Shown here: piece by piece, positions 3,025-3,724 of the stretch | Position numbering within the stretch: position 1 is the stretch's first letter | Layout: every line of letters begins with the position of its first letter | Source of the DNA: a virus | Taxonomy: Duplodnaviria > Heunggongvirae > Uroviricota > Caudoviricetes | Virus record (IMG/VR): IMGVR_UViG_2693429524_000006 | Length of the DNA: 7,351 nucleotides | Direction: 5' to 3' (one strand) | Position numbers and translations under genes: made by a program | Notes under the pieces: model-generated | What the model saw: the letters and a program-made list of their open reading frames with translations, nothing else | Told to the model about the DNA's origin: nothing | The model's database searches: none

Positions 3025-3204
3025 ATGCGAAACGAAAAATTGCAGATGCGTAGAGCGCAAGCTGCCGCAAGACGTTCTTTCAATGGAAGCGTAGAGTACG
3101 TAAAAGTTACTATGACAAAAGATCACGCAAGTCGCGTATCCCGCGCTTTCTTTGATTCTCGTAACAATAAGGAAAATTATGAGTTCGTCTGCGTCGCAGA
3201 ATGA
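3025..3204 (+). CDS. small basic protein (59 aa); candidate antitoxin or regulator partner of the downstream YafO-like gene
   Basis: ATG 3025 with GAGGT about 7 nt upstream; TGA 3202-3204; overlaps the next gene by 26 nt in another frame; absent from the supplied ORF track (below length cut-off). Confidence 0.45.
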   Translation: MRNEKLQMRRAQAAARRSFNGSVEYVKVTMTKDHASRVSRAFFDSRNNKENYEFVCVAE

Positions 3205-3724
3205 TAAAAATCAAGTTGTCAGATATAAGGGTCGAGTGTTGCATACGCAAAATTTCTCGGCCCTTTGTGCATCTGATCTTGAGCTGAAGAAAGTATCTGA
3301 TGCCTTTACCCAGTATTGGAAAACGGGATACCATCCATCTCTTGGTAAAGATGCTGCATTTGCTCGTCCGACAGAAATGCTTAAACTAAATGTCAGGCAT
3401 ACTCATGTCGATAACCAAGACTATATTCCAGAAGATAGTGATAAAAAACACACTGGTAAAAAATCATCTTGGGATGCATGGAAAAATATAGCGTCTGTAC
3501 AAGTAAAATGCATACCAACAAGTGATTGCTTTTTAGTTTATTCGGTAAATCACAATCGTGATGCGCTGGTTATGTTTTTTGTTGACGCAGATGCTCACAA
3601 CATAACTGAGCAAGAAGAGTTTAAAGAGGAAGCAATCACTATCAGTTATCAATTCTTTGAGAAAACAAAAACAGAACCAATGCCTTTAGAAGAAGATCTT
3701 TTTTCTGATAAATGGAAGGAATAG
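3179..3724 (+). CDS. YafO-like toxin family protein (putative ribosome-dependent mRNA interferase), 181 aa; family assignment tentative
   Basis: first ATG of the frame at 3179 with AAGGAA about 5 nt upstream (track start 3152 is TTG); blocks GKDAAF, KLNVRHTHV and LVYSVNHNRDALVMFFVDADAH align with conserved YafO blocks as recalled from memory. Confidence 0.6.
   Translation: MSSSASQNDKNQVVRYKGRVLHTQNFSALCASDLELKKVSDAFTQYWKTGYHPSLGKDAAFARPTEMLKLNVRHTHVDNQDYIPEDSDKKHTGKKSSWDAWKNIASVQVKCIPTSDCFLVYSVNHNRDALVMFFVDADAHNITEQEEFKEEAITISYQFFEKTKTEPMPLEEDLFSDKWKE

Follow-up and report, generated by a model that had tools for sequence, protein, structure and literature searches.

A phage accessory cassette encodes a divergent long-form YafO-family toxin and a small partner protein that is probably its antitoxin

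A stretch of 7,351 nucleotides (nt) from the viral record IMGVR_UViG_2693429524_000006 (Caudoviricetes), analysed at its full length and referred to below as the window, carries a cassette of two overlapping open reading frames (ORFs) of 59 and 181 amino acids. The locus raises the question whether these two genes form a toxin-antitoxin pair and, if they do, how the pair is controlled. A preliminary description, made from the sequence without database searches, had proposed a YafO-like toxin preceded by a non-canonical partner. The results reported here indicate that the pair is probably a type II toxin-antitoxin-like module, consisting of a long-form YafO toxin and a member of a new antitoxin family. 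The coordinates of the two ORFs, their 26-nt overlap and the separate Shine-Dalgarno sequence of the small ORF, all given in the preliminary description, were confirmed from the sequence (Table 1).

The 181-aa protein matched the Pfam family YafO_toxin (PF13957) with an E value of 8.1e-6 and a score of 26.3 bits, in an alignment spanning residues 46-152 and positions 3-92 of the 101-position profile; the curated gathering score of this family is 25 bits. When a profile made of 39 long-form sequences, from which E. coli YafO had been left out, was compared with E. coli YafO using hhalign, a probability of 85% and an E value of 5.8e-6 were obtained over 111 columns. The likeness to YafO had been proposed on the basis of three sequence blocks, and all three (GKDAAF/GRDALY, VRHTHV/VAHIHL and TSD..LVY...AH/TND..LVY...PH) were reproduced in this pairing. 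Residues F43, G50, P53, G56, K57 (R), D58, H74, H76, Y121 and H140 of the toxin align with the YafO core, the matching residues of the E. coli protein being F25, G32, P35, G39, R40, D41, H60, H62, Y88 and H109. Two of them, G56 and H76, are invariant in a family alignment of 60 proteins, made up of 59 full-length relatives collected by exhaustive profile search and E. coli YafO. PF13957 was matched individually by 33 of these 60 proteins, and the alignment grades from the long form (165-200 aa) to the canonical YafO size (130-150 aa). The long form differs from E. coli YafO by a helical insertion at approximately residues 78-112, which contains W98 and W101, and by a conserved C-terminal tail with the motif MPLxExLFxxKW.

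Relatives of the toxin are few. A word-indexed search yielded only 27 close clusters, all from Enterobacterales, and an exhaustive HMMER search, in which an alignment of the close clusters was run against 1.84 billion representative sequences, only 70 clusters at E values up to 0.001. The long-form branch is thus rare, and its occurrence is limited to Enterobacterales phages and prophages. No relative was found when genome contigs were scanned, scanning of NCBIfam gave nothing for either protein of the pair, and a sequence search of the PDB with the toxin turned up no solved YafO structure. The toxin assignment itself is already public: in the phage record and in chromosomes the gene carries the RefSeq/PGAP (Prokaryotic Genome Annotation Pipeline) label 'type II toxin-antitoxin system YafO family toxin'. 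What is new is the antidote family, the long-form subfamily and the link to an operator described below, and no paper treating this gene pair was found in the literature search. YafO is among the least understood of the RelE-type toxins.

The fold of the toxin was predicted with AlphaFold2. A model computed from 24 close sequences was poor (predicted local distance difference test, pLDDT, 55.6) and was superseded by a run with a 73-sequence family alignment, which gave a pLDDT of 91.3 and a predicted template modelling score of 0.86, residues 1-10 being the sole disordered part. The predicted structure has a RelE-type alpha/beta fold, as found in the RelE/ParE BECR-fold superfamily; a Foldseek search with the model gave no significant match. 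The fold agrees with the published placement of YafO among the BECR-fold mRNases with antitoxin-toxin gene order (PMC11980606). Within the YafO family the 181-aa protein is a divergent member of the long form, and its fold is of the RelE/BECR type.

The 59-aa ORF, which the preliminary description had treated as a gene, was intact in all 37 distinct related sequences of the 59-aa type. Outside the overlap the ratio of nonsynonymous to synonymous substitution rates was 0.2-0.4 for the small ORF, versus 0.05-0.12 for the toxin gene. Divergence at the first, second and third codon positions was 0.09, 0.08 and 0.30 in codons 29-51, and only 0.14, 0.18 and 0.22 in codons 1-28, which locates the constrained part to the C-terminal half of the protein. 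The constrained region extends from V29 to E59 and ends with N-Y-E-F-V. Two residues, E53 and F54, are invariant throughout the family, also in paralogues which do not overlap a toxin gene, and the overlapping codons of the toxin gene specify residues that the model shows as disordered; the small protein therefore seems to be the main target of selection in the overlap. The 59-aa ORF is a selected protein-coding gene, and it always stands directly upstream of the toxin gene. The small gene was left uncalled by PGAP in the one E. coli chromosome record that was inspected, where the toxin can thus be reported as an orphan by standard pipelines.

The small protein could not be assigned to any described family. 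In a Pfam scan of 15 members of the small family there was no family match, with neither ribbon-helix-helix (RHH), helix-turn-helix (HTH), AbrB or Phd nor Phd/YefM detected, and the matches of the small protein to DUF6955 and DUF7890 were weak and far under the cut-offs. Assignment to DUF6955 (E 0.041) was rejected, since the match was well under the cut-off and recurred in just three of the 15 members. Comparison of the small-protein profile with YafN by hhalign gave a probability of 0.1%, in line with the earlier statement that the protein resembles neither YafN nor a RelB/DinJ antitoxin, and a PDB sequence search with it gave no match. A profile search of 5.8 billion proteins retrieved 39 clusters, all annotated as 'hypothetical' and all from Enterobacterales; the phrog family of the protein is annotated as of unknown function, and this partner family is absent from Pfam. 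No DNA-binding family was detected in the small protein, such as an autoregulating antitoxin with its own DNA-binding domain would contain.

The small protein consists of a basic N-terminal stretch followed by a strand-then-helix-like segment, and one could imagine that it regulates the synthesis of the toxin, by binding nucleic acid at the level of transcription or translation, rather than sequestering the toxin. Its arginine-rich N-terminus (MRNEKLQMRRAQAAARRS) would suit such a role, and the segment VKVTMTKDHASRVSRAF recalls the start of RHH proteins. A hint of constraint at the nucleotide level comes from the 12-mer TGCCGCAAGACG at 3068-3079 (codons A-A-R-R), invariant including its synonymous positions in eight loci with up to 40% divergence between their proteins, and from the several-fold lower synonymous divergence of the small gene than of the toxin gene (0.39 versus 1.8 between the window and locus L030). 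No RNA structure or second reading frame accounts for the invariance of the 12-mer. Against a regulator speak the absence of RHH, HTH, AbrB and Phd families in the 15 members scanned, the lack of the second helix of the RHH fold and the weaker constraint on the N-terminal half at the protein level. The sole conserved palindrome of the promoter region also occurs in phages without the small gene and is thus not a private operator, and RNA structure was supported neither by covariation nor by shuffle tests. We regard this explanation as very unlikely.

The inheritance of the two genes was followed in a comparison set of 44 viral-contig loci containing the toxin gene, supplemented with loci from other sources. 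An upstream ORF was present in every related locus compared, in the same register and with the order antitoxin, then toxin. The identity of the 59-aa ORF tracked that of the toxin (83/80, 78/78, 81/78, 68/74, 78/70 and 60/57%). Such co-conservation is far beyond chance, and the genes form an adjacent, strictly co-conserved two-gene operon of the kind that characterizes type II modules. The two genes move as a unit between unrelated phage backbones. The pair was found in the slot of Uetakevirus phages of Escherichia, Salmonella, Citrobacter, Hafnia, Klebsiella, Serratia and other genera, and also inside siphovirus tail modules just 5' of the tape-measure gene, where a 62-64-aa ORF precedes a toxin of 175-183 aa. 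In Providencia-type phages the toxin gene is preceded by one or two small-family paralogues.

The two genes decay asymmetrically. The toxin gene was truncated once (L044) and split once in a more distant clade (L092), each time beside an intact partner, and the converse, a broken partner beside an intact toxin gene, was seen neither in the 37 distinct sequences of the 59-aa type nor in the distant-clade loci. This asymmetry would be expected of a partner protecting the cell rather than of one activating the toxin, and it therefore speaks against the idea that the pair is an obligate two-subunit phage effector, in which the small protein would serve as cofactor, chaperone or specificity subunit activating or targeting a RelE-fold nuclease during phage development. 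Such an effector would resemble a shut-off of host or early mRNA such as that by T4 RegB. It would be compatible with co-translation and strict co-inheritance of the genes, with a promoter that carries a phage-wide operator and thus probably ties expression to the lytic or early programme, and with the features of the long form that chromosomal YafO lacks (the W98/W101 insertion and the conserved tail). Gene order, size ratio and overlap, however, are in the style of type II modules, and the extra copies of the small gene in several phages are easier to explain for an antidote. We therefore consider a two-subunit effector quite improbable.

In the Providencia-type phages the small-family paralogues belong to arrays of two to four small ORFs preceding the toxin gene (L046, 1630-2056; L053, 2569-3017; L094, 2582-3410), and the one or two 59-aa-family paralogues in them do not overlap it; these unpaired copies may be spare or decoy antidotes. 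The same Uetakevirus slot of other prophages (L069, L071, L074, L076 and L077, at about 2640-3500) was found to hold a second, more distant YafO-like cargo, consisting of a 170-aa toxin and an overlapping upstream partner of 108-125 aa, which ends with ...KEExFDVFE and has no Pfam match.

Several observations weigh against the interpretation as a toxin-antitoxin module. The PF13957 score exceeds the gathering cut-off by just 1.3 bits, a narrow margin, and BLASTP of the 181-aa protein against YafO of E. coli K-12 was not significant (E 0.36). The similarity to YafO, for which the preliminary description had suggested a Pfam check, is genuine, though marginal when the sequence is taken singly. 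None of the PADLOC-DB v2 defence models matched either protein at E values up to 0.1. The small protein has no detectable relative of known function, and from the genetics we infer that it would bind the toxin and neutralise it. In L053 and L094 the ORF adjoining the toxin gene is a different one, of 67-71 aa, and not a small-family paralogue, which means that family membership and antidote role do not correspond strictly one to one. The partners in the other clades (62-64 aa and 108-125 aa) matched the 59-aa protein with a non-significant hidden Markov model E value of about 0.7 or were not detected at all; homology between them is not claimed, the resemblance being one of C-terminal motifs only.

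If the pair is a toxin-antitoxin module, the toxin would be an mRNA endoribonuclease that arrests translation, like E. coli YafO, and H76, H140 and Y121 would be its likely catalytic residues by analogy with YafQ and YoeB. The small protein would neutralise it by direct binding through its C-terminal half (approximately residues 29-59), a constrained region with the helix-like VSRAFYD segment and the invariant E-F near the C-terminus. The 26-nt overlap would couple translation of the two genes, and we propose that by such coupling the toxin is made only alongside its antidote.

Control of the cassette differs from what had been described. The preliminary description credited the pair with a strong promoter of its own, but a consensus scan of positions 2700-4100 found no sigma-70 site, and the best candidate, read by eye, is weak, with seven of 12 consensus positions. 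The position of this candidate is kept in eight diverged loci, where the -10 hexamer is mostly TAATAT. A palindrome of the form TTACC-N5-GGTAA, whose first base is the last of the candidate -10 element, is invariant in the same eight loci. In the window this palindrome occurs six times, versus 0.18 copies expected, its other copies lying upstream of the other cargo gene described below, upstream of a minus-strand ORF at 1784 and upstream of the leaders of both antirepressor genes. It is also present in phages phiV10 and phiv142-3, neither of which has the pair, and the complete genome of Escherichia phage TL-2011b contains ten exact copies, some of them beside a repressor gene. The promoter is thus not private to the pair.

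In TL-2011b two of the palindromes lie between gp9 and gp10, and one exact copy together with a copy having one mismatch is found in the divergent gp10/gp11 region. The gp10 protein is of the HTH_3 type and lacks a peptidase domain, and its homologue in phage vB_EcoP_ZX5 acts as a lysogeny repressor on overexpression (PMC9782041). The location of the palindrome beside the phage repressor gene, taken together with the behaviour of the vB_EcoP_ZX5 homologue, suggests that the palindrome is probably the operator of the phage HTH immunity repressor; no description of a TTACC-N5-GGTAA operator was found in the papers searched. Since the small protein has no recognisable DNA-binding domain, and the palindrome overlaps the promoter and also stands beside the repressor gene, transcription of the cassette is, to judge from the positions of the sites, probably set by this repressor. 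This view of the regulation is held with lower confidence than the identity of the pair. An upstream LexA box, considered for the motif CTGTACAG, was rejected, as its spacing does not fit CTGT-N8-ACAG.

Transcription set by the immunity repressor instead of by antitoxin autoregulation would amount to an effectively three-part arrangement, and a stable lysogen would express the cassette little, if at all, whereas infection or induction would switch it on. Possible benefits would include competition between phages, host shut-off at derepression, stabilisation of the element, or leaky defence or addiction in the lysogen. If repressor control is true, a compact toxin-antitoxin pair is wired into the immunity circuit of a temperate phage without regulating itself, which bears on the use of such modules in phage-phage competition. 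The element itself is of an ordinary kind, prophage-borne toxin-antitoxin cassettes being common, and current views are not overturned by it.

Being apparently gated by a repressor, the cassette is a poor fit with a prophage module for defence or maintenance that is expressed constitutively. It could nevertheless, along the lines of the preliminary description, be an abortive-infection or addiction system expressed in the lysogen, where leaky transcription would provide a toxin-antitoxin complex from which the toxin would be released by infection with another phage or by prophage loss. Phage defence is a known function of toxin-antitoxin modules with RelE-superfamily toxins (PMC11980606), the cassette lies in a variable accessory slot of a temperate phage, and a single operator at the promoter may repress incompletely. 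The operator at the -10/+1 region is, however, the one that also stands beside the repressor gene and precedes both antirepressor genes; antirepressor genes must be off in a lysogen, which speaks against expression of the cassette in that state, and no PADLOC model was matched. On balance we find lysogen expression of this kind conceivable but doubtful. We think it unlikely that the cassette is instead a repressor-gated poison-antidote switch serving the phage's own programme, equipped with decoy antidotes, and not a defence gene of the lysogen. Such a switch would stay silent while the repressor holds the TTACC-N5-GGTAA site and would be activated along with the antirepressors when the prophage is induced or when a naive cell is entered; the RelE-fold RNase would then reshape translation of the host or of a competitor, the small protein would time or limit its activity, and extra unpaired copies of the small gene would act as decoy antidotes disarming related toxins of resident prophages.

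The toxin-antitoxin pair proposed here was compared with known systems. Its mode of action would be that of YafNO and other RelE-type modules. It shares the toxin family with E. coli YafN-YafO of the dinB operon, as judged from Pfam and from profile alignment, and the core residues G-K/R-D, H-x-H, Y and H as well as the upstream position of the antitoxin gene are common to both. The two toxins are only about 20% identical and differ in length (132 aa in E. coli, 181 aa here), the partner here is not YafN- or Phd/YefM-like, and the context is a phage accessory slot in place of the SOS-regulated dinB operon. The closest architecture is that of PaaR-PaaA-ParE of O157 prophages, a three-component system with a short antitoxin lacking a DNA-binding domain and a separate regulator. 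It is alike in the antitoxin of about 60 aa without DNA-binding domain, the toxin of RelE/ParE fold and the prophage location; transcription by a separate repressor, as in PaaR-PaaA-ParE, would be a further parallel for the cassette here. T4 RegB is a phage RNase with a RelE/YoeB-like fold which is expressed in the early programme, has no known antidote gene and works without an antitoxin; no match to RegB in sequence or fold was seen for the toxin. HigB2 of Vibrio cholerae HigB2-HigA2 and HigB1 of M. tuberculosis, which are ribosome-dependent mRNases of the RelE superfamily, have 8-9% sequence identity to the toxin and gave no significant Foldseek match with it. In the HigBA modules listed in Table 1 of PMC11980606 the toxin gene comes first (T/A order), as opposed to the antitoxin-first order of the cassette.

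The features of the cassette are collected in Table 1. The sequence TATGAGG at the Shine-Dalgarno site of the small ORF is invariant in eight loci, and the AAGG of the toxin Shine-Dalgarno site is kept in relatives. A terminator belonging to the pair had been predicted, and a GC-rich stem-loop at 3723-3739 followed by a T-run was indeed found by terminator scan. The conserved right flank of the slot includes this terminator, of which a second copy, 92% identical, follows the other cargo gene at 971-995. An RNA hairpin masking the start codon of the toxin gene was considered and rejected, there being no useful covariation at a consensus energy of -9.8 kcal/mol; folding of the whole leader was no better than that of 11 of 200 shuffled sequences (z -1.9).

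Table 1. Features of the cassette and copies of the palindrome (window coordinates, except in the last row)
Feature	Position	Strand	Remarks
Candidate sigma-70 promoter	2922..2950	+	-35 TTGCAG 2922-2927, 17-nt spacer, -10 TACTAT 2945-2950; read by eye
Operator-like palindrome TTACCTCAAGGGTAA	2950..2964		overlaps -10/+1 region
Shine-Dalgarno GAGGT of 59-aa ORF	3014..3018	+	6 nt 5' of ATG
59-aa small protein ORF, candidate antitoxin, phrog_6685	3025..3204	+	ATG start
Shine-Dalgarno AAGGA of toxin gene	3169..3173	+	inside small ORF
181-aa long-form YafO-family toxin ORF, RelE/BECR fold	3179..3724	+	ATG start
Intrinsic terminator AGCCCGC-AGC-GCGGGCT then TTTTTTG	3723..3747	+	overlaps toxin stop codon; terminator scan
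Palindrome copies in the window	172-186, 273-287, 1805-1819, 1898-1912, 2950-2964, 4980-4994
Palindrome copies in TL-2011b (L093)	5172, 5234, 5946, 8227, 8289, 11590, 14819, 33333, 34385, 34478		genome coordinates

Over the stretch 2880-3800 the window matches Escherichia phage TL-2011b (NC_019445), in which the two genes are gp45 and gp44, with 100% identity, and the best-matching prophages of E. coli chromosomes with 99.6-100% identity. At least 80% of this stretch is present in 61 of 5,426 complete E. coli genomes. The neighbouring genes (tail fibre, antirepressors, internal virion protein) are of the epsilon15/phiV10-like podovirus type (genus Uetakevirus), and the locus of the cassette is a variable accessory slot adjoining the antirepressor genes, as the preliminary description had it. 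Most likely the pair belongs to an epsilon15/phiV10-like E. coli prophage (Uetakevirus, TL-2011b-like), whose accessory slot it occupies as exchangeable cargo.

The window contains this slot in duplicate. Segments 1-184 and 2779-2962, 971-995 and 3723-3747, and 996-1057 and 3940-4001 correspond to each other; these flanks, 92-97% identical, comprise the 3' end of an antirepressor gene with the promoter/operator region, the terminator and the tail of a 53-aa gene. The first copy of the slot holds the other cargo, a 211-aa ORF (328..963, phrog_1349) without Pfam match and with no function assigned. The 53-aa ORF (3817..3978, plus strand; phrog_14503, 'membrane associated protein') has a signal-peptide-like N-terminus (MKKAFAALFVLLSLVASTQAFA) and a Gly/Ser/Asp-rich tail; it forms part of the conserved right flank and also occurs beside other cargo (L071, L074, L077). 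The cassette and the 53-aa gene are bracketed by a 279-nt inverted repeat, 96% complementary (2622-2900/4028-4306), the arms of which are the 3' ends of the two convergent antirepressor genes, both coding there for the same C-terminal domain. Homologous recombination between the arms of this repeat could invert the cargo segment.

The antirepressor genes, encoding Bro-N (2182..2877) and AntA (4051..4707) proteins, are preceded by Rfam matches to isrK, to C4 antisense RNA and to its a1/b1 targets. These antisense-control matches are present twice, in inverted orientation, at 1936-2134 (plus strand) and 4757-4956 (minus strand), accompanied by a 171-nt inverted repeat (1854-2024/4868-5038). The antisense arrangement of the antirepressors is P1/P7 immI-like. 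On the minus strand, a 242-aa ORF (1056..1784, phrog_6762) combines a hydrophobic N-terminus with a Cys-rich C-terminus, which gave weak matches to the Stc1, endonuclease VII and Lar-like zinc-motif families. On the plus strand, a 115-aa ORF (5142..5489) consists of the antirepressor N-terminal domain P22_AR_N alone and looks like a truncated third antirepressor.

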